Below are positions 1,080 through 62,215 of a stretch of DNA of 64,000 nucleotides, piece by piece (positions within the stretch are counted from its first letter, which is position 1; each line of letters starts with the position of its first letter). Both the position numbers and the translations under genes were made by a program. The notes under the pieces are model-generated. The model was not told the DNA's origin. It worked only from the letters and a program-made list of their open reading frames with translations, and ran no database searches. The stretch comes from Cetorhinus maximus. Its lineage: Eukaryota. The stretch is from positions 18,476,001 through 18,540,000 of the forward strand of contig NC_135901.1 of the NCBI RefSeq assembly GCF_964194155.1, in the 5' to 3' direction.

Positions 1080-1620
1080 ACAAAGCCCACCTTCTGATTG
1101 GCTGGAGGATTAATGTCCTTCCGGTCCTCCAGAGCTCCCCATTGGCCGAAGCCGTCAACCTTGGCTCGAGAGAGGACAATGATGGTGGGGCTCCCGTGTC
1201 CGTGAGTCTGGCGCGGATTGGAACCCGAGGACGTCACCGCGGCGCAGGATGATTTCTATTGGATGATTCGGATAGCATTTCATTGTGGACTTCACAATGA
1301 CTTATGGGGCGTTCCCAGCGCACAGTCTCCCATTGGGAGGAATAGCACTGGTGACAGAAGCAAGATACTGCGGATTGGACAATAGCTCAGCGCGTCTGGA
1401 GGTCAAAGTCTCTCCCGCCCCCATGTGGGCTCGGCTTCCGCTTCCTCACTGGCTTCATACGAGGGAGTGACCAATAGGAAAGCTGGAGGAACGGAATGGC
1501 GCTGATGTTCCAACCAATCAGAGCGCGGGCTTTGAGCTAACGGCCCTATTGTCTGAAGCGGAAGTTGGACAATGACCTTCTCACACACTTAAACTGCCTC
1601 CTCTGTTCCACATCTGTGAG
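1080..1620. promoter_or_regulatory. CpG-rich promoter and first exon of ZNF1 (possibly bidirectional)
   Basis: CpG enrichment; CCAAT boxes at 1097, 1141 (as ATTGG) and 1471, 1514; ETS-like GCGGAAGT near 1558; donor GTGAGT at 1616; acceptor TTGCAG ending 1678. Confidence 0.7.
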
Positions 1621-2552
1621 TGAAACACTTTCTTTCCACCCGCTTTTCTAATTCTGAGTTTAAATTGCTGACTTGCAGGAACTGAAGGGAAAGGAAGTGA
1701 ATCTAGGGAGGGTGCAGACTCTGGAAAGATTGGCTCAGGTCTCTCTCTTTCTCTCTTTTAAAGACATTGACATCTTTTGCTCTCTCAGCTTGACACATTT
1801 ATTTGCCTGCCTAAGAGGACGGCCTCCTTCCTAATGTTCACATTTCAAGGGGATGGCTGACATTTAAGGGGACGGTAAATTAATATAGGCCAGAGATAAG
1901 TCTTGCTGTTATAAGGTACATATTAGAAATATTATTTATGGTTCTGCAAAAAAGTATAATTATAGTTATTTCTACTTGTTTTAATATGTTACTGTATATA
2001 TTTACAATCATAGACTTATCATGACACAGAAGGAGATCATTCAGCAACTCGAGTCCATGTCAATTGTCTGTAGAGCAATCCAGGCAATCCCATTCCCCCT
2101 CTATATCCCTGTTCCTGGGTAAGTTTATTTCCTTCAAGTGCCCATCCAGTTTCATTTTGAAATAATTCATCTCGGCTTCGACCATCCTTATAGACAGAGA
2201 TGCAGATTAAGACCTCTCATTGCTGACATAAAGTTCTTCCTCACATCCCCCTTCCACTGTATCTCTAATTAAGAAGTACTACATATCACACATTTTTCGT
2301 CTAGTTTCATGCATGTCTATCACATATATAAACATAAAGATTTTAAGGTCCTTGTGTTCAGAACATGAAGCTATGACCATGGACCTGTCGATCAGCATGA
2401 ATCGCTGCTTCGGAAGAGTGGTTAGGGTGACTATTATGTACAACAAAGAGAGAATAGAGTTACTTTTGGGAAATGAGAGAGGAAAGAATGATCCATAGAA
2501 ACTAGAATTGTCTTTTTTGAACTTATATCCTGCACTGACAGTGATGAATCTT

Positions 2553-2762
2553 ATAAAAGCAAAATACTGTGGATGCTGGAAATCTGAAATAAAAATGGAA
2601 AATTCTGGAAAATCTCAGCAGGTCTAACAGCACCTGAGAGATCAGAGTTAACGTTTCAAGTCCGTATGAGTCATATGGACTTAAAAGATTAACTTTGCTT
2701 CTCTCTCCACAGATGCTCTCAGACATTCTGAGTTTTTCCAGCATTTTGTTTTTATTTTACAT
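2553..2762. mobile_element. Short foldback element derived from a Penelope-like terminal repeat
   Basis: Two inverted copies of the CAGATGCT...CTGAGTTTTTCCAGC tail; flanked by TGATGAATCTT (2542) and TGATGAATTTT (2763). Confidence 0.7.
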
Positions 2763-2987
2763 TGATGAATTTTGTAAACTCCCTTTACAGGGTTTTAGAA
2801 GGGGAGATTTTGCAGACAGAAATCTCAAACCAAACATCACATCAAGATCTGACAGAGTCGCTTGATTTATTGGGACCTGAAAAAACATCACACCCTTCAC
2901 AGTGGGGAGAGACTGTACACGTGTTCCGTGTGAGGACGGAGCTTCAACCGATTGTCGAACCTGGAAAGATACAAGGACACTGGCACC

Positions 2988-4250
2988 ATGGAGAAACCAT
3001 GGAAATGTGGAGACTGTGAGAAGGGATTCAGATCCCCATCAGAGCTAGAGATTCATCGACGCAGTCACACTGGGGAGAGGCCGTTCACCTGCTCTGAGTG
3101 TGGGAATGGATTCAGTAATTCATCCAACTTATTGAAACACGAAGGCGTTCACACCGGCGAGAGACCATTCACCTGCCCTGACTGTGGGAAGGGATTCAGA
3201 TCCCTATCTAAGGTGGAGATTCATCGATGCGTTCACACTGGGGAGAGGCCGTTCACCTGCTGTGAATGTGGGAAGGGATTCACTCATTCATCCAACCTCC
3301 TGACACACAAGCGAGTTCACACCGGGGAGAGGCCATTCTCCTGCTCTGAGTGTGGGAAGGGATTCAGTGATTCATCCACCTTGCGGAAGCATCAGCGAGT
3401 TCACACTGGGGAGAGACCATTCACCTGCTCTGAATGTGGGAAAGGATTCACTCGGTCATCCAACCTGCTGATGCACCAGTGTGTTCACACTGGGGAGAGT
3501 CTATTCATCTGCTCTGAGTGTGGGAAGGGATTCAGTAATTCATTCAACTTGCAGACACACCAGCGGGTTCACACTGGGGAGAGGCCATTCAGCTGTTCTG
3601 AGTGTGGGAAGGGATTCACTCATTCATCTGCCCTACGGACCCACCTGCGAGTTCACACTGGGGAGAGGCCATTCATCTGCACCATGTGTGGGAAGCGATT
3701 CACTCAGTCATCCAGCCTGCTGGCACACCATGTCACTCACACCAATGAGAGACCCTTTAAATGCTCTGACTGTGGAAGTGGCTTCAAAATTGCTGCAGAT
3801 ATGAGAGTGCACCAGCGCATTCACACTGAGGAGAGGCCATTCAGCTGCTCTCACTGCAGAAAGAGGTTTAGAACGTCATCCAGCCTTCGGATACACCAGC
3901 GGGTTCACACCGGGGAGAGGCCGTTCACCTGCTCCGAGTGTGGGAAGGGATTCCGTGAGTCATCCACCCTGCATACACACCTGCGAGTTCACACTGGGGA
4001 GAGACCGTTCACCTGCTCTGAGTGTGGGAAGGGATTCCGTCGGTCATCCCACCTGCTGACACACCAGCAAGTTCACACTGGAGAGAGGCCATTCATCTGC
4101 CCTGAGTGTGGGAAGGGATTCACTAATTCATTCAACTTGCGAACACACCTGCGAGTTCACACTGGGGAGAGGCCATTCACCTGCACCGTGTGTGGGAAGG
4201 GATTCACTCAGTCATCTCACCTACAGACACACCAGCGAGTTCACAGGTGA
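2988..4250 (+). CDS. ZNF1: C2H2 zinc-finger protein, 15 tandem fingers, subfamily A, intact
   Basis: ORF 2952..4250; first ATG at 2988 in ACCATGG context; 15 repeats of C-x2-C-x12-H-x3-H with TGERP linkers; acceptor TTTACAG ending 2790. Confidence 0.9.
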
Positions 4251-4544
4251 TTACAGGGATTCTGCTGTTATTGCTGCTGTTAATCACATCCAGGACTGAA
4301 CCATGTTCATTCTGACAGCTGGTGAAGTGGGGTGGGGAGGTCAGTGGGTTTCTTTCTGCTGAGCTGGCCAGTCTCATGACTTTGCTTCCAGTGGGTGGAT
4401 GCTCTTTGAGCCTGGGAGTGCATGTTTCTACTGAAGTGATCCACAAAAGCTGATGAATTACATTTATCCTGGATAGTAAATAGTGTTTTCCCTACCACTA
4501 CAGGTAGATCTAAAATAAATACATTTGTCTCTGTTACTTTGAGT

Positions 4545-5055
4545 CTGCAGCACAGGGTCAGGCCAGTCGGCACAATTGGTCTATGTCAGCATTTATGTTC
4601 CACATGAGCCTCCACTTCATCTCCCCTGTCAGCATATCCTTCTATTCCTTTCTCCCTCATGTTTGTATCTCGCTTCCCCTGAGATGTATTTATGCTGTTC
4701 CCCTCAACCAATGGCTGTGGAATTCCACATTCTCACCACTCACTGGGTAAAAAGGTTTCTCGAGAAATCTCTATTGGATTATTGAACTTCTTCAGAGTCT
4801 TAAGGACTTCCATCAGGTCACCCTTCAGTCTTCTCTTTTCCAGAGAAAAGCAGGCGCAGCCTTTCCTGAGGGTTAAATGCTCTCAGTTCTGGTATTGCTC
4901 TTGTGAACCTTTGTTGCACCTTCTCCAGTGCCTCTGTTTATTTTTTCTAAATGAAGATCACAAATGTTGACAGTCCTCCCAGTGTAATCTAACCACTGTT
5001 CTAAACAAGTTGAACATAATCTCCCTGCTTTTCAATTCTATCCCTCTAGAACGGA
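4545..5055 (-). mobile_element. Degenerate CR1 3' fragment
   Basis: Antisense CR1 tail text (ATTCCACATTCTCACCACTCACTGGGTAAAAA; TCTTCTCTTTTCCAGAGAAAAG). Confidence 0.75.
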
Positions 5056-5794
5056 ATCCTACACATGGTTCTACATTAAAGGAAATTTGTGAAGTTCTTC
5101 GAAAGGCTGGATGGAGGGTTGATGCGAATGGCACCAGGGATGAGCGATTTCAGTTAGTTGGAGAGACTCCAGCAGCTGAAATCCCTCTCTTTAGATCATT
5201 GAGTCTTCAGTATAGGGAATAGGGCCATTCAGCTCACTGAGTCCATGCCAGCAACCTGTAGAGAAAAACCAGTTAGTCACATTGCCTGTTCCATTCTCAG
5301 ATCCTTGTAGGTTTATTTGCCTCAAGTGTCCATCTTATTTCCTTTTGAAATCATTCCATCATCTCTGCTTCTAGCATACTCAGCAAGTGGGGTCCAGGTC
5401 ATTACCACTCACGTTAAATGCACACAAGGCCCATAGAGCACAGGAGGAGGCCATTTGGTTCATCCTGTTCATGCCAGATATTTGAGAAAACTAGCCAGTG
5501 AATCCCTGAGCCTTGCAATTTTCTTTAACTTTAAAGAATCTGCTGAATTCCTTTTTGAAAGATAGAGTCCAATCTGCTCTCTGCACCATTTTCAGGCAGT
5601 GCATTCCAAATCACAGTAACTCCCTGTGCTTTAAAACACGTGATTCAGGATATAATGTGTTTGGATTTTTACAGAGCATTCAAAATGGTGTCAAAGACAT
5701 GGCTATTACACAAAATTAAGATTCAATCCTGATCAATGATGTTGATGATGGGACCAAGTGTAACATATCCAAATTAGTGGATAATTAGAAAAAA

Positions 5795-5894
5795 ACTGCA
5801 TTTCTGTAGCATCTCTCAGGACCACAGGACCTCCTAAAGCGTTTCACAGCCAATGAAGTACTTTTGAAGTGTAGTCACTTGTTATGTATGAAAC
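5795..5894 (-). mobile_element. Deu-domain SINE 3' tail, truncated
   Basis: CAGCCAATGAAGTACTTTTGAAGTGTAGTCAC is the reverse complement of the SINE tail seen at about 38040-38130. Confidence 0.7.
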
Positions 5895-6628
5895 TGTAGG
5901 TAGGCCTAGGTAGTCAAATTTAGTGTTAAAAATCAATCACTTTCATACCGTATTCACTGTGATAAATAAAAAGGTCAAGGAAACCATTTTAAACTCTAAC
6001 ATATGGCTGGATCTTTATTTTTTATCATAAACACTGTATTAACATAAATGTTTCCAGAAACTGAAGGCCGAATGGAAATTGTTTAAACAAAGAAATGCTT
6101 TTCTAATTTTGATAAGCTACAGGACATTAGATTCTACCAAAGCCCAGCTCAAGAATAAGGCCCATTGTTCAATCCAATCAAGATTAGTAAGAAAGCTATT
6201 GTCTTCCACAAACAGTCTTTTTGAACCAGTCTATCATGTATTAACCAAATCTATTAATTAAACATTACTGGATTAATTAGGTACCAGTCAGTAACAGAAG
6301 ATTGAATAAGTAGTGGGCCTTAATTGAATTACAATTAATAAATCAATAATGAATCAATCGTTATAGTAAAAGACTGAGTTTTATTTGCTGTAAAAATGTA
6401 AAACCTTAATTGCTGTGTATGTGACAAATGTGCAATGAAGATAAATGTACTGACAAGAGAGACCTTCAAAACCTGATTAGCCTCAACATTTGAAACTGTA
6501 TAAGGGTTGTATGGAATCAAATAAAGGGATAGTATGAAACAGTTCTATTGTATTGCTGTCTAAGATAATGAGAGAAGGTAGTGTAAGTAATTTGAGATCC
6601 AATTGAGTTAACCAATTGTCATGTTACA
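5895..6628 (-). mobile_element. Solo LTR-like element
   Basis: TGTA...TACA termini; minus-strand AATAAA about 120 nt from its 3' end; both flanking features are cut exactly at its termini; no TSD. Confidence 0.5.
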
Positions 6629-7347
6629 ACAAGCCCCATTCAGAGCAGGCAAATGGCCTCTCGCCAATGTGAATTCTCTGGTGTGTCAGCAGGTTAGATG
6701 ACTTAATGAATTGCTTCCCACAATCGGAGCAGGTGAACGGCCTCTCCCCAGTGTGAACTCGCTGGTGTGTTCGCAGGTGGGTCAAACAAGTGAATCCCTT
6801 TCCACACTCAGGGCAGGTGAACGGCCTCTCCCCGCTGTGAACTCGCTGATGTGTCTGCAGGTTGAATGATTTAATGAACCCCTTCCCACACTCAGAGCAT
6901 GTGAACGGCTTTTCCGTGATATGAACGTGTCGATGGGTTTCCAACTCAGACGGGCAACAAAAACCCTTCCCACAGTCCCCACATTTCCACGGTTTCTCTC
7001 AGATGTGGGTGTCCATGTGTCTCTCTGGGTTTGATAACCAGTTGAAGCCTCGTCCACACACACATCACGTGTACAGGATCTCCCTCCTGTAAATGGTGTG
7101 ATGCTTTCTCAGGCTGTGTAACTAGTCAAAGCTCTTTCCACAATCCGTTCACTGGAACACCCTCACTCGCGTGTGTGTGTGTATCTTTTCCAGTCACACT
7201 GATGTTTGAAATTTTTTTCCCTCAGACAGAACGGACAAACATTTCTCCTTCCACATTCAAGGGCTGATGATATTCAGTTCCTGATGAATTGAGTGACTCT
7301 GACAGATCTCGATAATTGGTTTTCCTTTTCCTTTGATTCCTAATACC
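6629..7347 (-). pseudogene. ZNF2: truncated C2H2 pseudogene, subfamily A
   Basis: About 4 readable fingers (ORF 6624..6944 plus upstream WKCGDC finger); TGA where paralogues have their ATG; array cut near 6630; acceptor at 7348-7350. Confidence 0.85.
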
Positions 7348-7364
7348 CTGTAAAAAGAGTTTAC

Positions 7365-7712
7365 ATAGAATTACAGAAAATACAGAATAGAAAGAGGCCA
7401 TTGGCCCAACTAATGTGTGCTGGCGTTTATCCTCCACACTCTTCTCCTTCAATTCCATCTACCTCAGCTCAGTCTTTCACTTTATCTTTCTATTCCTTTT
7501 TCTCTCATGCACTCATCTAGTTTCCTTCTGAAAGTATCTCAGTTTTTTGCCACAACCACTTCCTGTGGTAGTGAGTTCCACTTTCTAACTATTCTCTGAG
7601 TAAACACATTTCTCCATATTTCCCTATTGGATTTATTAGCAACTATCTTGTATTTCTGGCTCCTAATTTTGGATTCTCCCACAAATGGAAACATTCTCTC
7701 CACATTGACAAG
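7365..7712 (-). mobile_element. CR1 3' fragment
   Basis: ORF 7539..7916 ends with ERMFPFVGESKIR...FTQRIVRKWNSLP. Confidence 0.8.
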
Positions 7713-7779
7713 GCCCCAGATGACCGACTGGACAGAAAAATAGAAGCTGATGGGACCCCGGAGCAAGTTACAAGTTGAA

Positions 7780-8698
7780 TCCAAATTTGGCTCAATAGTA
7801 GAAAGTGATGAATGACGGTTGATGGGTGTTTTTTTGTGACTGGAAGGCTGGTTGCAGTGGGGTTTCACAGGGCTCAGTATTGGTTCCTTCATTCCTGGTT
7901 TATTTACTAGATTCACACTTAACTGTAGGCATATGAATAAGAAGTTTGATGATGATACAAAAAATAGCTGTGGGCTTAATGGAAAGGAAGAAAGTTGTAG
8001 GGAAAAGAAGGCAAAGGATCACATGATAAATGGTAGGATACTGAGAATTGTAGAGGAACAGAGATCTTGGAGTTCATGTCCACAGATCCCTGAAGGTAGC
8101 AGGGCAGGTAGATAAGGTGATTAAGGATACAGGATAATTACCCTTAATGAGGCATGGATTATAAGAATAGGGAGGTTGTGCTCGAACTGTATAACACACT
8201 AGTTATGCCAGAGCTAGAGTACTGTGTACAGTACAGGAAGGATGTGATCACACTGGAGAGAGTTACAGAAGGGGATATAAGAAGATGTGCCAAGAATGGA
8301 GAATTTTAGTAATGAGGAAAGGATGGATAGGCTGGAATTGTTTTCTTTGGAACAGAGGAGGCTGAGGGGAGACCTAAATAAAATGCATAAAATTATGAGG
8401 GGTCCATAGATTGGATAGGAAAGCAGTATTCCCTTTGTTGGAGGGGTCCATAATGAAGGGAAAGAAGTAGGAGGGTTAGAGCAGATATGAGGGATTTTTT
8501 TTTCACCCAGAGGGTGGTGAGAAGCTGTAACCCTCTGCTTGAAAAGATGGTAGTCACAGAACCCCTCATAACATTTATAAGGCACTCGGATATACATTTG
8601 AAGTGACCTAACCTACGAGGCTGCAGACCAAGATCTGGAAATTGGGATCAGGCTGGATGGCTACTTATTGGCCATTTTGGACATGACGGGCCGAATGA
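7780..8698 (+). mobile_element. Degenerate CR1 ORF2 (RT and 3' end)
   Basis: KFDDDTK (from KFADDTK), FSLEQRRLRGDL-type text and a CR1 3' UTR. Confidence 0.8.
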
Positions 8699-8924
8699 AC
8701 TGCAACATGGACAAAAAACTTTACCCAAAACTGGGACAGTAACTCTCAGGAATAACACAGCTCAACGGTTTGCGCATTTAGCTGCCAAGTATGTTTATTT
8801 AAGCATACGAGTTAATTTGTCTGCATAGAACAAATTCTTCAACATACCCAATGAGATCGATGTAATTGGTCTCACGTTTAACCTGAAAAGATCATTAAAA
8901 GTTTCCCAGTCTCTCTAATATCTG

Positions 8925-9125
8925 AAATCTTTGCCCACAGACATTTCACCTTCCACATTCAGAGGCCGCTGATATTCAGGTCCTGATAATCGAGTGACTG
9001 TCAGATCATGACATGATATTTGGTTTGAGGTTCCCGCTTGGGAATCCTTCTGTTCTGACCACCTGTAAAAGGAGTTTCCAGAGGAGTTTCACTGTGAATC
9101 CAGGGCAGAAATTCACAACATCCTT
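8925..9125 (-). other. Orphan copy of the ZNF exon leader with its acceptor, lacking fingers
   Basis: Matches 7230-7360 and 39300-39470 (CCTTCCACATTCA..GATATTCAGGTCCTGAT..CCTGTAAAAGGAG). Confidence 0.7.
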
Positions 9126-9129
9126 TCTT

Positions 9130-9525
9130 CGTGCATCCGGTCCGAGGATGGCCGCGCATGCGCCCTGTCCTTATAGAGATAGCGGCCGCGCATGCGCTCG
9201 GCTGCACATTGCCCCTATAAGGATGGCGGCTGCTCACCCGGACCTGTCACTGGCAGAAACATAAAGGGTATCGGGCCGCTCGGATAAAACACCGGACTGC
9301 ATCAAAAGTACTGAAACAGACGTCTTACCATATGGAAAGATTCTGAATAATGGCGGATGAGGCTACCCAGGATTCTCCGCGCGGGTGAATACGCCCTATC
9401 TCTAACAGAAGGGCAGTAACGCGCAGGCGCGGGAAGGCCCCGCCCCCGGAAGCCGCCCGCCTGCGCGGTGCGGCTCCAGGCTGAGCGCAGTCTCAGTGAG
9501 AGCGAGCGGGGACGGGGGTACAAGG
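9130..9525. promoter_or_regulatory. Bidirectional CpG-island promoter between ZNF2 (-) and ZNF3 (+)
   Basis: GCGCATGCGC (NRF1) twice; ATGGCGG (YY1-type) twice; GC box; CCGGAAG; homologous to 41780-42690. Confidence 0.75.
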
Positions 9526-9719
9526 ATTCATGTAGGAGCTGTTAATCCATTTCACACAGGCAGATACTTTTAATTTATGATGGGTTTATAGGAGTCAGTA
9601 GCAAGACCAGCTCATATTGCCAATCCCCAGTTGCCTGTTGAGAAATTGATGGTGGGTTTTGTTCTTGAACCGCTGCAGCCCGTGTGGTGAAGGGGCTTCC
9701 CCAAAACTGTTAGGTAAGG

Positions 9720-10180
9720 ATGGGATGAAGCATTTAAGTTATGAAGAGAGGTTGGATAGACTTGGGTTGTTTTCGTTGGAGCAGAGAAGACTGAGGGGTG
9801 ACCTGGTCGAGGTGTACAAGATTATGAGGGGCATGGACAGGGTGGATCGGGAGCAGCTGTTCCCCTTAGTTGAAGGGTCAGTCACGAGGGGTCACAAGTC
9901 CAAGGTGAGAGGCAGGAGGTTTAGGGGGGATGTGAGGAAAAACCTTTTTACCCAGAGGGTGGTGATGGTCTGGAATGCGCTGCCTGGGAGGGTGGTGGAG
10001 GCAGGTTGCCTCACATCCTTTAAAAAGTACCTGGATGAGCACTTGGCACATCATAACATTCAAGGCTATGGGCCAAGTGCCGGAAAATGGGATTAGGTAG
10101 GTAGGTCAGGTGTTTCTCACATGTCGGTGCAGACGCGATGGGCCGAAGGGCCTCTTCTGCACTGTGTGATTCTGTGATTG
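9720..10180 (+). mobile_element. Young CR1 3' fragment
   Basis: ORF 9659..10096 (YEERLDRLGLFSLEQRRLRGDL); TGTGATTC tail; same subfamily as 59678-60087. Confidence 0.92.
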
Positions 10181-10205
10181 AGAGGATCTTCATCCAGTGA
10201 TGAAG

Positions 10206-11278
10206 CAACAGTGATGTGTGTCCAAGTCTGTAACATTGACTTACATTTATAACGGTGAGATGTGTCCAAGTCTGTAACATTGACTTACATTTATAACGGT
10301 GAGATGTGTCCAAGTCTGTAACATTGACTTACATTTATATAAAACCTTTGATGTATGTTGTTTTATGGGAGTTTTACAAGTGACATCTAACACTGAGACA
10401 TATAAGGAGATATTGGGGCAGATGATCTGGAGTTTGGTCAAAGAGGTAGGTTTTAAGGAGTGTCTTAAAGCAGGAAAGAAAGGCACAGAGATGGAGAGAT
10501 TTCTGAAGGGAATTCCAGAGTTCATGGCTTGGCACACACACTAACACTGAAGCAATTGAAAATGGGGGTGCTCAAGAGGTCAGAATTAGATGAGCGCGGA
10601 GATCTCAGAAAGCTGTGGGGCTGGAGGAGATGACAGAAATAGGGAGGGGTGAGGTGTCAAGGAATTTGAAAACAAGGGTAAAACTTTAAAATTGAGGTGC
10701 TGCTGGATCTGGGGCTGTGTAAGTCAGCGAGCAGAAGGACACTCCTGAGATCTCTGCGCTCATCTAATTCTGGCCTCTTGAGCCTTTCTTTTGTCCTTTA
10801 AGACACTCCTTCAAACCTATCTCTTTGAACAAACTCCTGATTATCTGCCCTAATATCTCCTTATATGTCTCAGTGTCAGATGTTATTTGTAAAGCTCCGT
10901 AAAACAACATACATCAAAGGTATATAAATATAAGTCAATGTTACAGACTGGGACACACATCACCGTTATAAATGTAAGTCAATGTTACAGACTTGGACAC
11001 ACATCACCGTTATAAATGTAAGTCAATGTTACAGACTTGGACACATCTCACCGTTGTAACTGTAAGTTCAATGTTACAGACTCGGACACATCTCACCGTT
11101 ATAAATGTAAGTCAATGTTACAGACTTGGACACATCTCACCGTTGTAACTGTAAGTTCAATGTTACAGACTCGGACACATCTCACCGTTATAAATGTAAG
11201 TCAATGTTACAGACTTGGATACACATCACTGTTATAAATTTAAGTCAATGTTACAGACTTGGACACGCATCACTGTTA
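10206..11278. repeat. Imperfect palindrome: 43-bp minisatellite arms around an inverted L2 3' end
   Basis: About 3 units at 10208-10340 and about 8 reverse-complement units at 10925-11278; 10340-10608 is mirrored by 10746-10925. Confidence 0.85.
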
Positions 11279-11279
11279 T

Positions 11280-12859: not shown

Positions 12860-13270
12860 TTGAGAGTTTGGAAGGTTCTGTCAAAGTTTAGGTCAAGTTG
12901 TGGATATATAAAATCCCTCACCCCTAATGCTGCCACATCTCACTTTCTTTATCTTCTCTCTTAGAAGCCAGAGCCCAGGTTCAGACCGAATGCATCAGTG
13001 AACCAGTTGGATTGTTTTGACAATCCAACAGTTTTCATGGTCACTTTTTCCTAGTGTCAGCCCCATAAATTACCAGATTCATTCAGCTCAATTTCACAAC
13101 CTGCCCTTGTGTTTTTGTGGCTTCTCACAAACTCCTATTTTTGTTTTAAATCAATTTCACAGGGTAATAGAAGGGAAGGAAGGCAGTCGGGAAATTCAAA
13201 CCCAACATCACATCAAGATCTAACAGAGTTGCTCAATTTATCGTAACCTGAATATTGTTAGATTTTGAAC

Positions 13271-13978
13271 ATGGAAGGAAAAAACGCCGTTCACAGTTGG
13301 GAGAAACCATACACGTGTTCTGTGTGTGGACGAGGCTTCAACCGATCATCTGACCTGTCGAGACACAAGCGCAGTCACACTGAGGAGAAACCGTGTAAAT
13401 GTGGGGACTGTGGGAAAGGATTCAATTTTCCAGTTCAGCTGGAATCTCATCGGCGCAGTCACACCGGGGAGAAGCCGTTCACCTGTTCCGAGTGTGGGAA
13501 GGGATTCACTCTGTCATGCAACCTGTTGGCTCACCAGCGTGTTCACACTGATGAGAGACCTTTTAAATGCCCAGACTGTGGGAAGTGCTATAAAAGTTCT
13601 GGTGAACTGATGCGCCATCAACGTATTCACACTGATGAGAGGCCATTCAGGTGCTCTCAGTGCCATACTGGGTTCAGGCAATTATCTGACCTCACTGTAC
13701 ACCAGCGAGTTCACACTGGAGAGAGGCCGTTCACCTGCTCAGAGTGTGGGAAGGGATTCACTCAGTTAGCCAACCTGCTGACACACCAGCGCATTCATAC
13801 TGGTGAGAGGCCATTCACCTGCTCCTTGTGTGGAAAGGGATTCACCACATTATCCAACCAGCTGGAGCACCAGCGAGTTCACACTGGGGAGAGGCCATTC
13901 ACCTGCACCTTTTGTCAGAAAGGATTTGCTCATTCATCCACCGTCCTGAGACACCAGCAAATTCACAAAGATGCATGA
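13271..13978 (+). CDS. ZNF3: C2H2 zinc-finger protein, 8 fingers, subfamily B, intact
   Basis: ORF 13265..13978; ATG 13271 (AACATGG); in-frame TAG just upstream; acceptor TTTCACAG ending 13162. Confidence 0.88.
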
Positions 13979-17940: not shown

Positions 17941-18205
17941 GGGAGGAACAACTGGTTGAATTGTAGAAATAAAAAAATCATCACCCGCTGACTCTCCCAC
18001 CAACTTCCTGACTGTTTCCGTCTGTATCTTTTTCTCTCTCCTCCCAGTTGGGTTTTTATGACAATCCAGCAGTTTTCATGGTCACTTTTTCCTAGTGCCG
18101 GCACAAAAAATTACCAGATTCATTCAGCTCAGTTTCACAACCTGCCTTTGTGTTTTTGTGGGTTCTCTCTCACTCTCTTTTCTCTGTTTTAAATCAATTT
18201 CACAG

Positions 18206-40103: not shown

Positions 40104-40255
40104 GTTTTTTTTTTGCAAAAATATACTTTATTCATAAAATGTCTTCAACCACATTCCAAACCATTTCAAAAACACCATTACAAGGGTACAATCCGGTTCA
40201 ACTTTTACAATTTGTATCACCAGGTGCATCAGTACAAACAATATTACAATCATTT
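40104..40255 (-). mobile_element. Poly(A)-tailed LINE 3' end (Tx1/L1-like)
   Basis: Minus strand TTTTATGAATAAAGTATATTTTTGCAAAAAAAAAA. Confidence 0.6.
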
Positions 40256-48503: not shown

Positions 48504-50023
48504 CTGGCACTGTGTCTCTGACACTTCCCTTCCCTTCCCTTCCTTGACCTCTCTGTCTCAATTTCTGATGATATACTGTCCACCAATATCCATTACAAGC
48601 CTACCGACTCCCACAGCTACCTCGACTACAGCTCCTCACACCCCGCTTCCTGTAAGGACTCCATCCCATTCTCTCAGTTCCTTTGCCTCCGTCGCATCTG
48701 TTCTGATGATGCTACCTTCAAAACAGTTCCTCTGACATGTCCTCCTTCTTCCTTAACCGAGGTTTTCCACCCACGGTCGTTGACAGGGCCCTCAACCGTG
48801 TTCGGCCCATCTCCCGCGCATCCACCCTCACGCCTTCTCCTCCCTCCCAGAAACATGATAGGGTCCCCCTTGTCCTCACTTATCACCCCACCAGACTCCG
48901 CATTCAAAGGATCATCCTCCGCCATTTCCGCCAACTCCAGCATGATGCCACCACCAAACACATCTTCCCTTCACCCCCCCTGGCGGCATTCCGTAGGGAT
49001 CGTTCCCTCCGGGACACCCTGGTCCACTCCTCCATCACCCACTACTCCTCAACCCCCACCTATGGCACCTCCCCATGCCCACGCAGAAGATGCAACACCT
49101 GCCCCTTCACTTCCTCTCTCCTCACCGTCCAAGGGCCCAAACACTCCTTTCAAGTGAAGCAGCATTTCACTTGCATTTCCCCTAACTTAGTCTACTGCAT
49201 TCGTTGCTCCCAATGCGGTCTCCTCTACATTGGAGAGACCAAACGCAAACTGGGTGACCGCTTTGCAGAATACCTGCGGTCTGTCCGCAAGAAAGACCCA
49301 AGCCTCCCTGTCGCTTGCCATTTTAACACTCCACCCTGTTCTCTTGCCCACATGTCTGTCCTTGGCTTGCTGCATTGTTCCAGTGAAGCCCAATGCAAAC
49401 TGGAGGAACAGCACCTCATCTTCCGACTAGGCACTTTACAGCCTTCCGGGATGAGTATTGAATTCAACAACTTTAGATCTTTAACTCCCTCCCCCATCCC
49501 CACCCCCTTCCCGTTTCTTCCCCCTCCCTTTTGTTTTTTCCAATAATTTATATAGATTTTTCTTTTCCCACCTAGTTCCATTATTTTTAAATCTATAACT
49601 GTTATACCCTGTCAGTCTTTCCACCCCACCCCCACTAGAGCTGTACATTGAGTGTCCTGCCATCCATTCTTAATTAGAACATTTTCTTAGATAATATCAC
49701 CACCTTTAACACCTCTTTGATCCTTTTGTCTGTGACATCTTTTGATTATCTGCTCCTATCACTGCATGCTTGTCCCTACAACCACCCCCCCCCCCCCACC
49801 ACAACTTCTTTCCCCCCACCTCCCCCCCCCCCCCCCCCAACCTTAAACCAGCTTATATTTCACCCCTCTCCTAACTATACTCAGTTCTGCTGAAGGGTCA
49901 TGAGGACTCGAAACGTCAACTCTTTTCTTCTCCACCGATGCTGCCAGACCTGCTGAGTTTTTCCAGGTAATTCTGTTTTTGTTTTGGATTTCCAGCATCC
50001 GCAGTAGTTTTTTTGTTTTTATT
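48504..50023 (+). mobile_element. Penelope-like element, 5'-truncated (RT end, GIY-YIG, terminal repeat)
   Basis: ORF 48737..49546 with LVYCIRC..LYIGETKR; TSD AAGGTCC(A/T)GTTT at 48492 and 50024; hammerhead-like motif at 49883-49921. Confidence 0.92.
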
Positions 50024-50059
50024 AAGGTCCTGTTTTCTCCTGGAGTTTGAGACAAATCA

Positions 50060-50480
50060 GCTTTTAAAATGATGCAGAGTTTCAGCCAATGAGGGAGATC
50101 CGGGCTCAGCCCCGCCCATCATTCACTCTGATTGTTTGGAGGACCAGCCGATCGCCGCTTGGTCCTCCAGGCCCACCCCCTTTTTCTATTGGTGCGGAGC
50201 TGCCATCAATTACCCCCCCCCCACCCCGGGCATTGTGATCTGGAGCATGCGCAGTGCGGGTGATGTCCATGGACAGACGCTTGTTTGCCTCATCTTCAGG
50301 CGGGAAGGAGGCGGATAAGCGGAGGCAGCGTTAGGGGCAGTGGGTGGGAGGGGAGGCTTCACAAACACCCAGTGGAGGCCTCAACACCCCCAGTAAGAAA
50401 GTACCGGGCCCGCCTTCACACTGAACGGAACGGCAGCTGCGGGCTTTCTCCCGGTGCCAGGCCCGAGTGGACAAATGTGG
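50060..50480 (+). promoter_or_regulatory. CpG-island promoter upstream of ZNF9
   Basis: CAGCCAATGAGGGAGATCCGGGCTCAGCCCCG identical to 17375-17405; GAGCATGCGCAGTGCGG. Confidence 0.72.
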
Positions 50481-50569
50481 GTTAATGAAGGAAATGCAGC
50501 AATGGGTTTGTTAGTGAGAAATCACCTTTAACTCACTTTACTGATCCTGGAGCAGGAGGAGAGAATGGT

Positions 50570-50727
50570 GTGAATTTCTATCCTGGGCTGACAGGGATGG
50601 ATTTTGGAAACTCCTTTTACAGGGGGTGAGAAGGGGAGGATTTACAGATGGGAAAGTCAAACCTGACATCACATTCAGAGCAGACCCGATTCATCAGGAC
50701 AGGGATATTATCGGCCTTTGAGTGTAA
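50570..50727 (+). other. Orphan subfamily-A ZNF exon leader, cut by an antisense CR1 (50730-51058)
   Basis: AAACTCCTTTTACAG|GGGGTGAGAAGGGGAGGATTTACAG matches 2775-2880. Confidence 0.7.
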
Positions 50728-52070: not shown

Positions 52071-52231
52071 CCTTTGTGTTTTTGTGGGTTCTCTCTCACT
52101 CCATTTTTTCTGTTTTAAATCAATTTCACAGGATGTTAGAAGGGAGGATTTACAGTCAGGAAACTAAAACCAAACATCAGAGCAGGATCTGATGGAGTTG
52201 TCCAATTCATAATAAACTGAACATTGTGAAC

Positions 52232-53519
52232 ATGGAAGGAAAAAGTACTGTTCACAGTGGAGAGAAACCAAATACATGTGTGTGTGGACAAGACTTCAGC
52301 CAATCATCTGGCCTCACGAACCACAAATGCAGTTACACTGGGGAGGAACTGGGGAAATATGAAAACTATAAGAAGGGATTCAGTTACCCGTTTGACCTGG
52401 AAACTTATCGATGCAGTCACAGCAGGGAGAGGACATTCACCTGCTCCGTATGTGGGAAGGGATTCACTCAGCCATCCAATCTGCTGAGACACCAGCGCAT
52501 TCACACTAGGGAGAGGCCGTTCACTTGCTCTGAATGTGGGAAGGGGTTCAATCAGTCATTCACTCTGCTGAAACACCAGCGAGTTCACACTGATGAGAGA
52601 CAATTTAATTGCCCAGTCTGTGGGAAGTGCTATAAAAGTTCGAAGAAACTGGTGTTCCATCATCGTGTTCACACTGATGAGACACCATTCAGGTGCTCTC
52701 TCTGTGGAACTGGGTTCAGGCAATCATCTCATCTCACTAAACAACAGAGGATTCAAACTGGGGAGAAGCCGTTCACCTGCTCCGAGTGTGGAAAGGGATT
52801 CACTTGATCATGCCACCTGATGGCATACCAGCGAGTTCACACCGGGGAGAGACCTTTTAAATGCCTGGACTGTAGGAGATGTTCTAAAAGTTCTGGGAAA
52901 CTGATGCGCCATCAACATGTCCATACTGGTGAGAGACTTTTTAAATGTCCAGACTGTGGCAAGTGCTATAAAAGCTCCGGGGAAATGATGTTCCATCAAT
53001 GTGCTCACACTGAGGAGAGACCTTTTAAATGCCCAGACTGTGGGAAGTGTTATAAAAGTTCCGGGGAACAGATGCGCTATCAACATGTTCACACTGAGGA
53101 GAGACCGTTCAGGTGCTCTCACTGTGGGGCTGGGTTCAGGCAATCATCTCATCTCATCGAACACCAGAGGATTCACACTGGGGAGACACCGTTCACCTGC
53201 ACTGAGTGTGGGAAGTGTTTCACTCGATCATGCCACCTGATGGCACACCAGCGAGTTCACAGTTGGGAGAGACCATTTAAATGCCCAGACTGTGGGAAGT
53301 GTTATAAAAGTTCCGGGGAACGGAGGCACCATCAACTTGTTCACACTGAGGAGAAATCGTTCAGGTGCTCTCAGTGAGGGAACTGGGCTCAGGCAATTAT
53401 ATCAGCTCACTGTGCACCAGAGGATCCACACTGGAGAGAGACTGTTCACCTCCACTGGGTGTGGCAAGAAATTCACTCGAAAATCCCACCTGCTGAGACA
53501 CCAGAGAGTTCACAGGTGA
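52232..53519 (+). pseudogene. ZNF9: C2H2 gene, about 15 fingers, disrupted, subfamily B
   Basis: TGA at 52805 and 53375 plus a frameshift; first two fingers degenerate; a truncated product from ORF 52226..52807 remains possible. Confidence 0.8.
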
Positions 53520-54880: not shown

Positions 54881-54889
54881 GGAGAGACA

Positions 54890-56360: not shown

Positions 56361-56571
56361 ATAATACAATGATTTATAGTAAACATATGATAGAATCATA
56401 GAGCATGGATGGTGGCCATTCAGCCCATTGTCCCTGTACTGTCCCTGAAAATGTTACCAATCTGTCCCACTCCCCTGCTCTTTACCGATCGCCCTCCAAA
56501 TCTTTCCTAATTAAATAAAAGTCCAAATCACTTTTGAAAGTTACTATTGAATCTGCTTCTAGCAATCATTC

Positions 56572-57620
56572 CGACAATGAAAACGATGACTTCAGTCTTC
56601 CCAATATTTAATTGGAGGAAATTTCTGCACATCCACCACTGGATATCAGACAAACAGTCTGATAATTGACCAAAAGTGGAGAAGTCGAGAGAGGTGGTGG
56701 TGAGGTAGAGCTGGGAGCTGTCAGTGTAAATGTGATAAGTGACAGTGTTTTCAGATGATGTCATTGTGTGGAACAGGTTGATGAGAAATAAGAGGAGACC
56801 AAGGTGGATCCTTTGGGGATGCCAGAGGTAACTGTGGGATTGGAAAGGGAAGACATTGCAAGTGATTCTCTGGCTATGATTCGATAGGGACGAATGGAAC
56901 CAGGAGAGAGCAGCCCCACCCAGTTGGACGACAGGGGAGAGGCGAAGGTGCAGAATGATATAGTCAGCATTGTCAAAGGCTGCAGGCAGGTCGAGGACAA
57001 GGAGGACGCGTTTATCTTTGCCACAGTCACATAGGATGTCATTTGTCACTTTGATAAGAGCTGTTTCAGTACTGTGGCGGGGGCAGAAACATGATTGGAG
57101 GGATTCAAACATGGAGTTCTGGGAAAGATGGGCAGGGATTTGGGAGGTGACAACACGTTCAAAGACTTTGGAGAGGAAAGGGAGGCAAGAGATGGGGCAA
57201 TAGTTTGGAAGGACAGTGGGGTCAAGGATTTGTTTTTTGAGAAGGGTATAATGATGGCAGATTTGAAGGTAAGAGGGACAGTACCTGAGAGAAAAAAACT
57301 ATTATCATAGTCAGTGAACATGGGGAAGTTGAGTGATCAGCAGTTTAGTGGGAGTAGGGTCGATGGAGCAGGAGGTGAGTTTCATGGACAAGGTGAACTC
57401 TGAGAGGGCATGAGGGGAGATGGGAGGGAAACTACAGAAAGATGTGAGTTCAGGGCTCGGGCAACAGGGAACTTTAGAGGCAGTTCAGCCCCGTGGGCTA
57501 GTGGAAGGGAAGCAGCAGAGGCAGCTGATCAGATTGTCTTAATCTTAGTGACAAAGAAGCTCCATGAGCTCCTCACACTTGTTGTTGGAGGTGAGGATGG
57601 AGGAGACGGGGAGAGGGAGA
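56572..57620 (-). mobile_element. L2 fragment downstream of ZNF10
   Basis: ORF 56528..57112 (HSTETALIKVTNDIL..LDLPAAFD). Confidence 0.88.
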
Positions 57621-57824
57621 GCCCTTCGAAAAGGACTAACCTGAGTTAGAGATATTCAAAAAACCTCGATGGATTTGCGTTTAACACAAAGCTGCTTATT
57701 TGATTTTTATCAAGAATATTAGCCCCTGTAAGTGGTCTGGAGATTAGTAACATCAGCAGAAACAGACTCCAATTAACAGGGTTCAATCCTGGATATGATT
57801 AACAGCAAAATCAAATCATTTTAG

Positions 57825-58779
57825 TTACTTATGAATTCGCTGGTGTCTCAGCCGGTGGGATGAGATAGTGAATCCCATCCCACACTGTGAGCAGGTGAAC
57901 AGCCTCTCCCCTGTGTGAACTCACTGGTGTGTCAGCAGGCTGGATGAGATAGTGAATCCGTTCCCACACTGTGAGCAGGTGAATGGTCTCTCCCCGCTGT
58001 GAATTCGTTGATGTGTCAGCAGGCTGGATGATTGAGTGAATCTCTTCCCACACTTGGAGCAGGTGAATGGTCTCTCCCTTGTGTGAATTCACTGATGGTC
58101 AGTGAGTTGAGATGATTGTCTGAATCCAGTCCCACATTGAGAGCACTTAAATGGTCTTTCGTCAGTGTGAACACGTTGATGGTACATCAATTCCCAGGAA
58201 CTTTTAAAGCACTTCCCACAGTCCAAGCATTTAAAAGGTCTCTTATCAGTGTGAACTCGCTGGTGTGTCAGCAGGGTGGATGAGGTAGTGAATCCCTTCC
58301 CACACGTGGAGCAGGTGAACGGCCTCTCCCCAGTGTGAATTCGCTGGTGTACAGTGAGTTGGGATGATCGCCTGAACCCGGTCCCGCAGTGAGAGCATTT
58401 AAATGGTCTCTCATCAGTGTGAACACGTTGATGGTACATCAGTTCCCAGGAACTTTTATAGCACTTCCCGCAGTCTGGGCATTGAAAAAGCCTCTCTTCA
58501 TTGTGAACTCGTTGGTGTCTCAGCAGGTTGGATGAGAGAGTAAATCCCTTCCCACCACATGGAACAGGTGAACGGCCTCTCCCCAGTGTGACTGCGCTGA
58601 TGCTTTTCCAGCTCAGCTGGGGATTTGAATCCCTTCCCACAGTCCCCACATTTCCACGGTTTCTCCCCAGTGTTACTGCACTTGTGTTTCCACAGGCCAG
58701 ACGATTGCCTGAAGCTTCATCCACACACAGAACACGTGTACAGTTTCTCCCCACTGTGAACAGTGCTTTTTTCTTCCAT
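57825..58779 (-). pseudogene. ZNF10: C2H2 pseudogene, about 11 fingers, subfamily B
   Basis: ATG 58779; +1 frameshift near 58556; TGA at 58089-58091 and near 57922; acceptor at 58887-58889. Confidence 0.85.
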
Positions 58780-59289
58780 GTTCAAAATCCGATGATACTC
58801 AAGTTACAATCAATTCGACGACTGTCAGATTCTGATGTGATGTTTGGTTTGAGTTTCCTGACTGCAAATCCTCCTCTTCTAATACCCTGTGAAATTGATT
58901 TAAAACAGAAAAAAGGGCGTGAGAGAGAATCCACAAAATCATAAAGGCAGGTTGTGAAACTGAGCTGAATGAATCTGGTTATTTGTGGAATTGACACGAG
59001 GAAAAAGAGACCATGAAAACTGCTGGATTGTCATAAAAACCCAACTGGTTCATTAATGTCCTTCAGGGAAGGGAACCGGAAACCCAGACTGGGCCTACAC
59101 AAGACTTTAGCCTCTATTGGAGGAGAGAGAGAGGTGGGAGATGCAAGGGGTGAAGAAATACTCTGCACATCTGCAACTCATCCAGGAATTTCACAGAATC
59201 CCCAGAGCCTCAACCACCACCACCTAGAAGGAAAAGGGTAACAGGTGCCAGTGAACACCATCACCTCCAACTCACACACCGTCCTGACT

Positions 59290-59672
59290 TGTCTGACATC
59301 CAGTGCAGGATGAGCAGAAATGTCCTCCATTTAAATACTGGGAAGAGCGAAGCCATTGTCTTCAGCCCCCACTACAAACTCCACTCCCTAACCACCGACT
59401 CCATCCCTCTTGCAGCTGTCTGAGGCCGAACCAGACTGTTCACAATCTTGTTGTCATATTTCAGCCCAAGCTGAGCTTCTGACTACATATCACTAAGATC
59501 GCCCATTTCCACCTCAGTAACATCGCCCGGCTGTGTCCCTGCCTCAGTTCATCAGCTGCTGAAACTCATCCATTCCTTTGGTCCCTCTAAACTGGACTAT
59601 TTGAATGTGCGTCTTGGTGGCCTCCCCGATTCAACTCCATAGAAACTGGAGGTCACCCAAAACTCAGCTGTG
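59290..59672 (+). mobile_element. L2 fragment upstream of ZNF10
   Basis: Paralogous to 27465-27870. Confidence 0.78.
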
Positions 59673-59677
59673 CATGA

Positions 59678-60087
59678 CAGAATCACAGTGCAGAAGAGGC
59701 CCTTTGGCCCATCGAGTCTGCACTGACACGTGAGAAACACCTGACCTACCTACCTAATCCCATTTACCAGCATTTGGCCCATAGCCTTGAATGTTATGAC
59801 ATGCCAAGTGCTCATTCAGGTACTTTTTAAAGGATGTGAGGCAACTCACCTCCACCACCCTCCCAGGAAGCACATTCCAGACTGTCGCCACCCTCTGAGT
59901 AAAAAAGTTTTTCCTCAAATCACCCCTAAACCTCCAGCCCCTCACCTTGAACTTATGTCCCCACATGACTGACCCGTCAACTAAGGGAAACAGCTGCTCC
60001 CTATCCACCCTGTCCATGCCCCTCATAATCTTGTACATCTCGATCAGGTCACCCCTCTGTCTTCTCTGTTCCAACGAAAACAACCCA
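59678..60087 (-). mobile_element. Young CR1 3' fragment
   Basis: ORF 59754..60158 (LFSLEQRRQRGDLIEMYKIM..GYGPNAGKWD). Confidence 0.9.
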
Positions 60088-62055
60088 CCAGCCTCCGCAT
60101 TAAAAGGATCATCCTCCACCATTTCCGCCAACTCCAGCATGATGCCACCACCAAACACATCTTCCCTTCACCTCCCCCGGCGGCATTCCGTAGGGATCAT
60201 TCCCTCTGGGACACCCTGGTCCAGTCCTCCATCACCCCCTACTCCTCAACCCCCACCTATGGTACCTCCCCATGCCCACGCAGAAGATGCAACACCTGCC
60301 CCTTCACTTCCTCTCTCCTCACCGTCCAAGGGCCCAAACACTCCTTTCAAGTGAAGCAGCATTTCACTTGCATTTCCCCTAACTTAGTCTACTGCATTCG
60401 TTGCTCCCAATGCAGTCTCCTCTACATTGGAGAGACCAAACGTAAACTGGGCGACCGCTTTGCAGAACACCTGCGGTCTGTCCGCAAGAAAGACCCAAAC
60501 CTCCCTGTCGCTTGCCATTTTAACACTCCACCCTGCTCTCTTGCCCACATGTCTGTCCCTGGCTTGCTGCATTATTCCAGTGAAGCCCAACGCAAACTGG
60601 AGGAACAGCACCTCATCTTCTGACTAGGCACTTTACAGCCTTCTGGACTGAATATTGAATTCAAGAACTTTAGATCTTGAACTCCCTCCTCCATCCCCAC
60701 CCCCTTTCTGTTTCTTCCCCCTCCCTTTTGTTTTTTCCAATAATTTATATAGATTATTCTTTCCCCACCTATTTCCATTATTTTTAAATCTATAATTGTA
60801 ATGCCCTGTCAGTCTTTCCACCCCACCCCCACTAGAGCTGTACCTTGAGTGTCCTGTCATCCATTCTTAATTAGCACATTCTCTTAGATAACATCACCAC
60901 CTTCAACACCTCTTTGTTCCTTTATCTGTGACATCTTTTGATTATCTGATCCTATCACTGCTTGCTTGTCCCTACAACCACCCCGCCCCCCAACTTCTCT
61001 CCCCCCACCTTAAACCAGCTTATATTTCACCCCTCTCCTAATATTACTCAGTTCTGTTGAAGGGTCATGAGGACTCGAAACGTCAACTGTGCTCTCCTCC
61101 GCCGCTGCTGCCAGACCTGCTGAGTTTTTCCAGGTAATTCTGTTTTTGTTTTGAAGAAGTACTGCTCTGCTCTCCGACAGGATTTTCGTATATCTCTTCT
61201 GCCTTGTTCACCTTCATTGCTTTCCATTTCTCTCCTGGTGTTTGACAAGGTGTTTACTAATACCCGCTTTCACAGCCATATTTCCGTTCTCAGTGACTAT
61301 CTCCGTCTCTGACTTACCCCACGTGGATTTCAACTGAAATTCCATCCCTCTTGTTTCGAACCCACCCAGGATTCCATTTTAACACTCCACCCTGCTCTCT
61401 TGCCCACATGTCTGTCCTTGGCTTGCTGCATTGTTCCAGTGAAGCCCAACGCAAACTGGAGGAACAGCACCTCATCTTCCGACTAGGCACTTTACAGCCT
61501 TCCGGACTGAATATTGAATTCAAGAACTTTAGATCTTGAACTCCCTCCTCCATCCCCACCCCCTTTCTGTTTCTTCCCCCTCCCTTTTGTTTTTTCCAAT
61601 AATTTATATAGATTTTTCTTTTCCCACCTATTTCCATTATTTTTAAATCTATAATTGTAATGCCCTGTCAGTCTTTCCACCCCACCCCCACTAGAGCTGT
61701 ATCTTGAGTGTCCTGCCATCCATTCTTAATTAGCACATTCTCTTAGATAATATCACCACCTTCAACACCTCTTTGTTCCTTTGTCTGTGACATCTTTTGA
61801 TTATCTGCTCCTATCACTGCTTGCTTGTCCCTACAACCACCCCGCCCCTCAACTTCTCTCCCCCCACCCCCCCACCTTAAACCAGCTTATATTTCACCCC
61901 TCTCCTAATATTACTCAGTTCTGTTGAAGGGTCATGAGGACTCGAAACATCAACTGTGCTCTCCTCCGCCGCTGCTGCCAGACCTGCTGAGTTTTTCCAG
62001 GTAATTCTGTTTTTGTTTTGGATTTCCAGCATCCGCAGTAGTTTTTTGTTTTTAT
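60088..62055 (+). mobile_element. Tandem Penelope-like element; second copy internally deleted
   Basis: GIY-YIG ORF 60351..60623; near-identical 3' regions 60515-61153 and 61374-62020; hammerhead-like motifs at 61049-61089 and 61916-61956. Confidence 0.9.
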
Positions 62056-62084
62056 CGATTGTTTCTCGCTTCTCCATCTAACTC

Positions 62085-62215
62085 CAGGTACAACCTGCAC
62101 TGCGCAGGCTCCGTTTACAGCCCAGCAGTGCGCCTGCGCAGGAAGCTCGTGGTTTGGTAGGACACATTCTTCTCCACGGAGAATTCTGGGTAAACTCACC
62201 GCCATTGAAAGGTGC
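62085..62215 (-). promoter_or_regulatory. Promoter of ZNF10
   Basis: Minus strand AATGGCGGTGAGTTTACCCAGAATTCTCCG..TGCGCAGGCGCA aligns with 9348-9430. Confidence 0.65.

Follow-up and report, generated by a model that had tools for sequence, protein, structure and literature searches.

Among the closest described kinds of zinc-finger gene (ZNF) expansion, the FiNZ-ZNF family of cyprinids numbers 684 genes lying almost all on zebrafish 4q, carries selection at DNA-contact residues in 4 of 7 clades and was shown by knockdown to repress transposable elements (TEs), as set out in the available part of PMC10547256; the same partial source reports that, across animals, ZNF number follows retroelement number, whatever the accessory domain. 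For ray-finned fish, a role of TRIM33 together with KRAB-like or FiNZ domains has been proposed (excerpts of PMC11603059 and PMC10380595), and a loss of KRAB-domain families in cartilaginous fishes is stated in the accessible portion of the whale shark paper (PMC8455134). Cartilaginous fishes have retroelement-rich genomes and no KRAB-ZFPs, which lends interest to the means by which these animals target repeats in a sequence-specific manner. In the present study, we analysed a window of 64,000 nucleotides from the shark Cetorhinus maximus (contig NC_135901.1, here C24, positions 18,476,001-18,540,000; the contig is 65.16 Mb long in a 3.99-Gb assembly), in which a six-frame scan found ten C2H2 arrays on both strands. 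With confidence about evenly divided, we read this window as an ordinary slice of a chromosome-wide, finger-only ZNF family, whose members would probably bind repeats such as transposons and probably repress them via a partner docked on the fingers.

The first-pass annotation had described ten paralogous poly-C2H2 genes plus relics, half of them disabled, as a 62-kb cluster. The gene count holds: five arrays (Z1, Z3, Z5, Z6 and Z7) have a whole-array open reading frame (ORF) from an ATG, and the other five (Z2, Z4, Z8, Z9 and Z10) have lost their ATG or carry stops or frameshifts, and are therefore disabled (Table 1). The cluster is likewise real but not local, for arrays run along the whole of C24. 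When 10-kb stretches were taken from it every 2 Mb, from 0.5 to 64.5 Mb, 17 of 32 contained arrays; because none of 8 control stretches of the same size from other large contigs contained fingers, a chance origin of the arrays is excluded. By density, C24 carries about 5,800 arrays (bootstrap 3,800-8,100), and a figure of about 4,800 (2,500-10,800) follows from an exact 33-mer that occurs 405 times in the genome and was present in 8 of the 94 arrays sampled. We therefore estimate the family at roughly 5,000-6,000 arrays, about one third of them with an intact frame. A longer exact motif (46-mer) matched 83 times, with 75 matches on C24, 1 on C36 and 7 on small scaffolds. Of the 66 arrays in two contiguous regions of C24 (39 in 264 kb, 27 in 210 kb), 23 possess a family-type ORF with at least 5 fingers and 43 do not, and therefore roughly 1,700-2,000 genes are potentially coding. 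Birth-and-death turnover, as had been proposed, is borne out by the ORF, pseudogene and relic counts in the window and in these regions, where neighbouring arrays lie on alternate strands in 43 of 64 pairs.

Some blocks are nearly identical (one pair at 99.8%), with equal scores on C24 and on unplaced scaffolds. Many equal-scoring gene copies occur at C24:0-17 Mb and on small scaffolds, representing either very recent segmental duplications or uncollapsed haplotypes. At C24:27-31 Mb, head-to-head gene pairs share one promoter cassette, whose exon 1 and next 250 bases are far more similar than the paired genes, and this excess of likeness in the cassette suggests gene conversion. A few dispersed copies of the family were found on C5, C10, C11, C22 and C36. 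The C5 copy (45.76 Mb) lacks the intron, its leader being immediately preceded by sequence that agrees with the Z6 exon-1 end at 13 of 15 bases, and is therefore a processed pseudogene; the C10 copy (89.0 Mb) is 5'-truncated, and the C11 copy (10.15 Mb) is an intron-containing duplicate with its promoter. In the horn shark, 4 of 5 leader matches fall on one 59.5-Mb contig, a hint that the ZNF chromosome may be shared among sharks.

The unit of the family begins with a CpG promoter and a non-coding exon 1, which an intron separates from a single 3' exon. In the latter follow one another the decayed leader (some 36 codons and at most three fossil fingers), a stop in frame, an ATG in Kozak context and the finger array; the C2H2 array with its canonical linkers thus lies in one 3' exon, as in KRAB-ZFPs. 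The promoter and exon 1 of Z1 (CpG observed/expected 0.69-0.82) yielded 733 first-look candidates, and 43 of 43 among the matches listed fall on C24. A leader was found 5' of 83 of 94 arrays, and 70 of 77 leaders retain the acceptor AG. In its majority reading the leader has 36 open codons, to which the long type adds three fossil fingers with shared stops and then the Kozak ATG (MEKPWK); in the short type two fossil fingers are deleted, the third is open, and a TAA lies before a new ATG (MEGK/MEEK). All 31 genes with the family ATG and at least 5 fingers have an in-frame stop 1-46 codons 5' of that ATG (12 codons in 16 genes, 8 codons in 5); 30 of them have no candidate acceptor between stop and ATG, and 28 have a strong Kozak context. 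As had been claimed, the proteins begin at or just before the first finger, with 5-15 residues ahead of it.

In exon 1 of the CpG cassettes, ATGs open only small upstream ORFs (uORFs), out of frame, and none is in the leader frame. Joints of exon 1 to the leader were present in contigs from three of four sequencing runs whose RNA status is a guess and which, coming from four studies of other organisms, represent paralogues; on locus L050 these joints link positions 6919/6920 to 7810, matching the predicted donor and acceptor (the exon starts at 7808). The donor joined to the leader acceptor in these contigs is homologous to that of Z1 exon 1, and in the fourth run a loose end at the acceptor matches the end of exon 1. 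Aligned to positions 1000-4700, four runs gave no splice among the joints listed and were dominated by a repeat and paralogous fingers.

Over 29 independent pairs, the ratio of nonsynonymous to synonymous differences (pN/pS) in the leader was 0.94 (0.80-1.12), and across the six frames it ranged from 0.85 to 1.11. Of the 70 genes with the AG, 2 can be read without a stop from the acceptor to the first finger in a shifted frame, and none in that of the array; frameshifts occur in 42 of 70 leaders, and some stops lie at non-Cys positions. The leader is decayed coding DNA and does not encode protein today. A hidden FiNZ-like domain or a uORF peptide was rejected, with pN/pS near 1 in all six frames, and selenocysteine or readthrough at TGA codons on fossil Cys positions was set aside on account of the common frameshifts and the other stops at non-Cys positions.

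KRAB was matched once in the whole genome, on contig C34, in a KRAB-SSXRD-PR/SET-ZF gene. This complete-looking PRDM9-type gene (C34:9.105-9.125 Mb, minus strand) encodes KRAB, SSXRD, a zinc knuckle and PR/SET, followed by a uniform array of about 12 fingers that vary mainly in the helix. Its KRAB domain had no match in 784 kb of C24 (best E 2.2). For SCAN, none of 150 scored matches, out of 4,987 candidates, fell on C24, and the SCAN matches were scattered. No N-terminal BTB domain was seen in the few residues preceding the first finger, no genome-wide BTB search having been run, and no FiNZ-type upstream coding exon was found, exon 1 being without a leader-frame ATG and the leader carrying stops, with no FiNZ profile run. 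Because of the upstream stops, the neutral leader, the exon-1 joints, the restriction of KRAB to the PRDM9-like gene and the lack of SCAN on C24, the description of these proteins as effector-less at the N terminus is well supported; the earlier statement that no KRAB or SCAN exon or other N-terminal effector is visible therefore stands.

A profile built from six open leaders retrieved 12 proteins, and all 12 were from sharks (sawshark, horn shark, white shark and catsharks), in agreement with the shark origin presumed at the outset; the family is likely to be shark-specific. The FQTSV stop is shared with predicted proteins of sawshark and horn shark, 3 of the 11 viewed ending there, and a sawshark protein starts with [14 protein letters not shown]. 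Because this leader stop is common to sawshark and horn shark, the loss of the N-terminal part is likely to predate the split of the two lineages. In a search with the whole Z5 protein, generic vertebrate ZNFs were returned, and the sole shark match among the 120 listed had the highest identity (66%). Two sawshark entries (P0121 and P0128) are predicted histones H2A and H2B fused to the ZNF leader frame; these fusions are likely to be annotation artefacts or read-through transcripts, and therefore histone and ZNF genes would be neighbours in the sawshark. Megabase-scale histone gene arrays were observed here as well, most of the top 150 histone-family matches lying on two small contigs, at C32:8.7-21.4 Mb and C39:1.0-1.9 Mb.

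Selection was examined in the clade of Z5, with 18 collinear, DNA-aligned genes including pseudogenes and our own code for the codon models M1a and M2a. In this clade, the nonsynonymous/synonymous rate ratio (omega) was lowest for Cys/His (0.09), higher for core Phe/Leu (0.25), linkers (0.29) and the remaining positions (0.43), and highest for helix positions -1/+3/+6, with 0.85 (0.64-1.11); zinc ligands and linkers are under purifying selection. At family depth, where the first finger could be placed in 79 of 90 arrays, contact omega reached 1.8 in the first finger and 2.7 in the one after it. To keep CpG effects out, we also counted transversions alone: codon positions 1-2 of -1/+3/+6 had 11.5 per site in the first finger and 13.5 in the next, whereas the leader had 3.7 and fourfold sites had 4.1-4.3 (79 genes); not one of 200,000 resamplings of leader columns reached this excess. 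The contact residues have therefore diversified about three times faster than neutral sites over the history of the family. With a class-specific rate, the omega of the second finger was 2.44 and significant (likelihood-ratio statistic 13.0). Most genes carry the first finger at the N terminus; its Trp, Pro+1 and Glu+5 are retained, with omega of 0.45 and 0.27 at +1 and +5 versus 1.35 and 2.46 in the next finger. Whole fingers have been gained and lost between relatives, and the residue sets at -1/2/3/6 include 351 distinct combinations among 559 common-type fingers, with predicted canonical DNA-reading helices.

This combination gave rise to the following scenario. An ancestor would have lost its N-terminal part before sawshark and horn shark separated. 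The units have spread by duplication at the DNA level, often in alternating orientation, with genes duplicating and dying. Intact members would be finger-only proteins, directed at TEs or other repeats. The partner could dock on the side of the first finger that is conserved and makes no contact with DNA (MEKPWKC..., Pro+1, Glu+5), and this side would replace the KRAB or FiNZ domain; as a fallback, promoters might be blocked sterically. We regard repeat binding with recruitment by the fingers themselves as an evenly poised proposition. A bolder version is clearly less probable and is put forward tentatively: that one shark chromosome holds the largest vertebrate ZNF repertoire yet, a third and independent TE-policing system whose N-terminal domain was lost in the ancestor of living sharks and which might silence independently of KRAB, FiNZ and TRIM28 through the fingers, by the first-finger face or a readthrough tail.

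Several observations weigh against the scenario of repeat-binding repressors. M2a does not beat M1a in any of four young clades (18, 10, 3 and 4 genes), where contact omega was 0.85, 0.66, 1.32 and 0.50; in the three smaller clades the fingers were picked by their Cys/His pattern, so that an omega of 0 at these positions is built in, and two fingers are mis-paired in the Z6 clade. Contact pN/pS was 0.36 in the 9 closest pairs, and with the class-specific rate the first-finger contact omega of 1.22 was not significant. The trees ignore gene conversion and the pairing of fingers is imperfect. A purely non-binding first finger was rejected, its contact residues diversifying like the others. Furthermore, only about a third of whole arrays retain a family ORF of at least 5 fingers, the exon-1 joints come from guessed RNA of paralogues, and uncollapsed haplotypes may inflate the copy totals, because some blocks are nearly identical. 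Positive selection on the helices, as anticipated by the first-pass annotation, thus appears as a family-depth excess at -1/+3/+6 and fails in the site models of all four young clades; because of this discrepancy, diversification looks episodic, and its simplest reading would be retargeting in bursts, the new specificities then being held.

The same finger-only proteins may serve another purpose, with host promoters, satellites or the ZNF chromosome itself as main targets, and act as competitors, insulators or genome stabilisers and not as TE silencers. They carry no silencing domain, and contact residues are conserved within young clades, as stable targets would give. Non-TE targets and genome stabilisation were raised for ZNFs generally by Wells et al. 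(part of PMC10547256), and the hemipteran finger-only ZF271-like expansions do not follow repeat content (portion of PMC6444547), which also counts against repeat binding. Thousands of copies, two-thirds of them broken, together with a threefold contact excess, nevertheless suit a moving target better than host promoters that stay fixed, and we judge this explanation unlikely, albeit the most serious competitor.

Less credible still, and already weakened, is runaway duplication of a compact recombinogenic cassette, in which few genes would matter, the rest would be neutral and the variety of helices would reflect finger shuffling and relaxed constraint. The 43 whole arrays without a family ORF of at least 5 fingers, the very recent near-identical blocks and a contact omega near or below 1 in young clades would all fit. 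Neutrality, however, is at odds with the Cys/His omega of 0.09 in a DNA-aligned clade that includes pseudogenes and with contact transversions about threefold over fourfold and leader sites, and the leader and start have been retained across shark orders.

A slightly smaller chance attaches to a hidden effector, added either by stop-codon readthrough into a 17-residue tail or by a rare isoform that splices a coding exon into the array. Following the stop, a 17-codon in-frame tail occurs family-wide and is common to 55 aligned genes, with a core conserved at all codon positions. Of 39 TGA-type genes only 4 have a stop inside the tail, its omega is 0.56 in frame versus 1.85 and 1.56 in the other frames, and in some genes the first stop is lost in frame, e.g., in Z7, where the family stop is gone and the tail is predicted to be translated. 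Yet the excess at third positions falls short of significance (permutation p 0.077), with similar asymmetry beyond the second stop, and 12 of 24 tail indels shift the frame. The readthrough motif is TGA-CTAG, whereas the commonest stop context before the tail is TGA-TTA-C, and short-type genes have a second stop within the tail. The tail may possibly be a readthrough element or an element of the 3' untranslated region (UTR). Finally, that the unit is a mobile element bearing zinc-finger arrays, as its compactness, its repetition in both orientations and the few copies on C5, C10, C11, C22 and C36 could suggest, is highly improbable and largely refuted by confinement to one chromosome (75 of 83 exact matches on C24). 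Introns are kept in the copies; that on C5 is a processed pseudogene, that on C11 a duplicate with its intron, and no transposase or reverse-transcriptase frame recurs with the unit in the window.

The features of the window are listed in Table 1. Between the genes lie fragments of reverse-transcriptase and GIY-YIG retroelements, with Pfam matches on 5 of 14 ORFs tested. Pfam matches on Z1 and Z5 were confined to zinc-finger-type families (25 families shown for each), the Z1 leader had no Pfam match and Rfam gave no match in the window. The units of Z5 and Z10 form a local duplication, 2.5 kb at 78% identity (25315-27860 / 57146-59670), and a young pair of GIY-YIG retroelements is 92% identical (48884-49986 / 60081-61153). 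Minisatellites of 44 bp and 34/35 bp occur at 10217-11279 and 16185-17191, each in two blocks, those of the 44-bp minisatellite being inverted around an insertion.

Table 1. Features of the 64,000-nucleotide window (positions within the window; array starts and finger numbers from the six-frame scan; aa, amino acids)
Feature	Position	Strand	Array start (fingers)	Remarks
Z1 promoter (CpG island) and non-coding exon 1	1080-1615	+		donor GT at 1616; family-wide cassette
Z1 leader	2791-2987	+		decayed coding DNA 3' of conserved AG acceptor; now 5' UTR
Z1, intact	2988-4250	+	3006 (15)	420 aa, 15 fingers, N-terminus MEKPWK
Z2, disabled	6624-7347	-	6669 (4)	start ATG lost, truncated, 4 fingers
Relic, promoter and leader without array	8918-9500	-		leader at 9062(-)
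Z3, intact, short type (MEGK start)	13163-13978	+	13316 (8)	ORF 13271-13978, 235 aa, 8 fingers
Z4 promoter, leader, disabled array	17370-19160	+	18343 (7)	frameshift, stop
Z5, intact, short type	25977-27039	-	25983 (10-11)	ORF 26930-25977, 317 aa, 11 fingers; in 18-gene collinear clade
GIY-YIG copy, related to 48710-49546	28604-29140	-		Pfam, weak E-values, 6e-5 to 6e-3
Z6 promoter and exon 1	31100-31240	+		donor after 31240
Z6 leader (three fossil fingers), then intact ORF	32139-33418	+	32513 (11)	ORF 32495-33418, 307 aa, 10 fingers and one degenerate
17-codon tail	33419-33470	+
Relic finger array with stops	33600-33900	+
Z7, open ORF	38345-39410	-	38486 (5)	ORF 39070-38345, 241 aa, 5 canonical and degenerate fingers
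17-codon tail	38345-38400	-
LINE reverse-transcriptase fragment	40198-40662	-		Pfam
Z8, disabled	45080-45800	+	45379 (4)	frameshift, stops
GIY-YIG (Penelope-like) retroelement fragment	48710-49546	+		Pfam, weak E-values, 6e-5 to 6e-3
Relic, promoter and leader without array	50079-50724	+		leader at 50623(+)
Z9, disabled	52132-53515	+	52442 (7)	first fingers degenerate; in-frame stop 52805-52807
LINE reverse-transcriptase fragment	56528-57298	-		Pfam
Z10, disabled	57831-58886	-	57831 (9)	stops, frameshift
GIY-YIG copy, related to 48710-49546	59985-60623	+		Pfam, weak E-values, 6e-5 to 6e-3

Shark ZNFs have been counted before. In the consulted part of Supplemental Data 1 of Wells 2023 (PMC10547256), ORFs with at least 5 fingers number 3,586 in catshark, 1,851 in white shark, 1,223 in thorny skate and 475 in elephant shark; the main text of that paper contains neither 'shark' nor 'chondrichth'. 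The available parts of PMC10208646, PMC13047888 and PMC12513265 contain nothing on shark ZNF clusters, and no description of a shark ZNF chromosome or of the present gene structure was found in the literature searched, subscription journals lying outside its coverage. The counts are thus already in print; the chromosome-wide family and the finger-only gene structure appear new, and there may be an earlier mention. According to the accessible text of PMC2604467, poly-ZF genes that lack annotated domains are numerous and may be either genuine or artefactual. The shark family offers a direct test of whether ZNF-based control of repeats needs an accessory domain, and of whether ZNF expansion follows TEs without an attached one. 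Being uniform, on one chromosome and with shared 5' sequence at the start codon, it lends itself to knockdown or profiling as a class, as was done for zebrafish FiNZ. For annotation, predicted shark proteins in which the leader is fused to histones or to random frames look like artefacts of this 5' UTR.

In comparison with known systems, the likeness to FiNZ-ZNFs lies in a lineage-specific poly-C2H2 expansion concentrated on one chromosome, in the array within a single 3' exon, in the TE-rich surroundings and in a signal of selection at the contacts, found in some clades of FiNZ and appearing in the shark family as an excess at family depth but in none of the four young clades. In contrast, FiNZ is a 28-aa acidic domain on an upstream coding exon, whereas the shark exon 1 does not code and the ATG is preceded by stops; the shark family is several times larger. 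FiNZ genes are characterised by expression at zygotic genome activation and by TE derepression on knockdown, and TE repression is a putative role in the shark family. With the sarcopterygian KRAB-ZFPs it has in common tandem clusters, TGE(R/K)P linkers and birth-and-death turnover (parts of PMC2604467 and PMC10380595), as well as the fastest change at -1, +3 and +6 (same part of PMC2604467); it differs in having no KRAB and, among the 150 scored matches, no SCAN on C24, and the TRIM28 route cannot be assumed. Hemipteran ZF271-like/APEZ proteins are also finger-only, with tandem clusters, pseudogenes, array shuffling and no known co-repressor route, as far as the accessible text of PMC6444547 goes, but they comprise about 115 insect proteins in clusters of 4-8 with variable exon structure (same text), as against thousands of uniform shark cassettes with a fossil leader on one chromosome; the two are likened by organisation, an independent origin being assumed. 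ZNF512 and ZNF512B, compared by description only, are zinc-finger proteins that bind satellites and LINEs (long interspersed nuclear elements) and bring in SUV39H by a route not tied to KRAB/TRIM28 (excerpt of PMC13537249), but they are two conserved genes and no expanding family. The shark family therefore belongs to neither the KRAB-ZFPs nor the FiNZ-ZNFs, and its closest kinds are the FiNZ-ZNFs, for the array on one chromosome, and the hemipteran ZF271-like genes, for the finger-only proteins.

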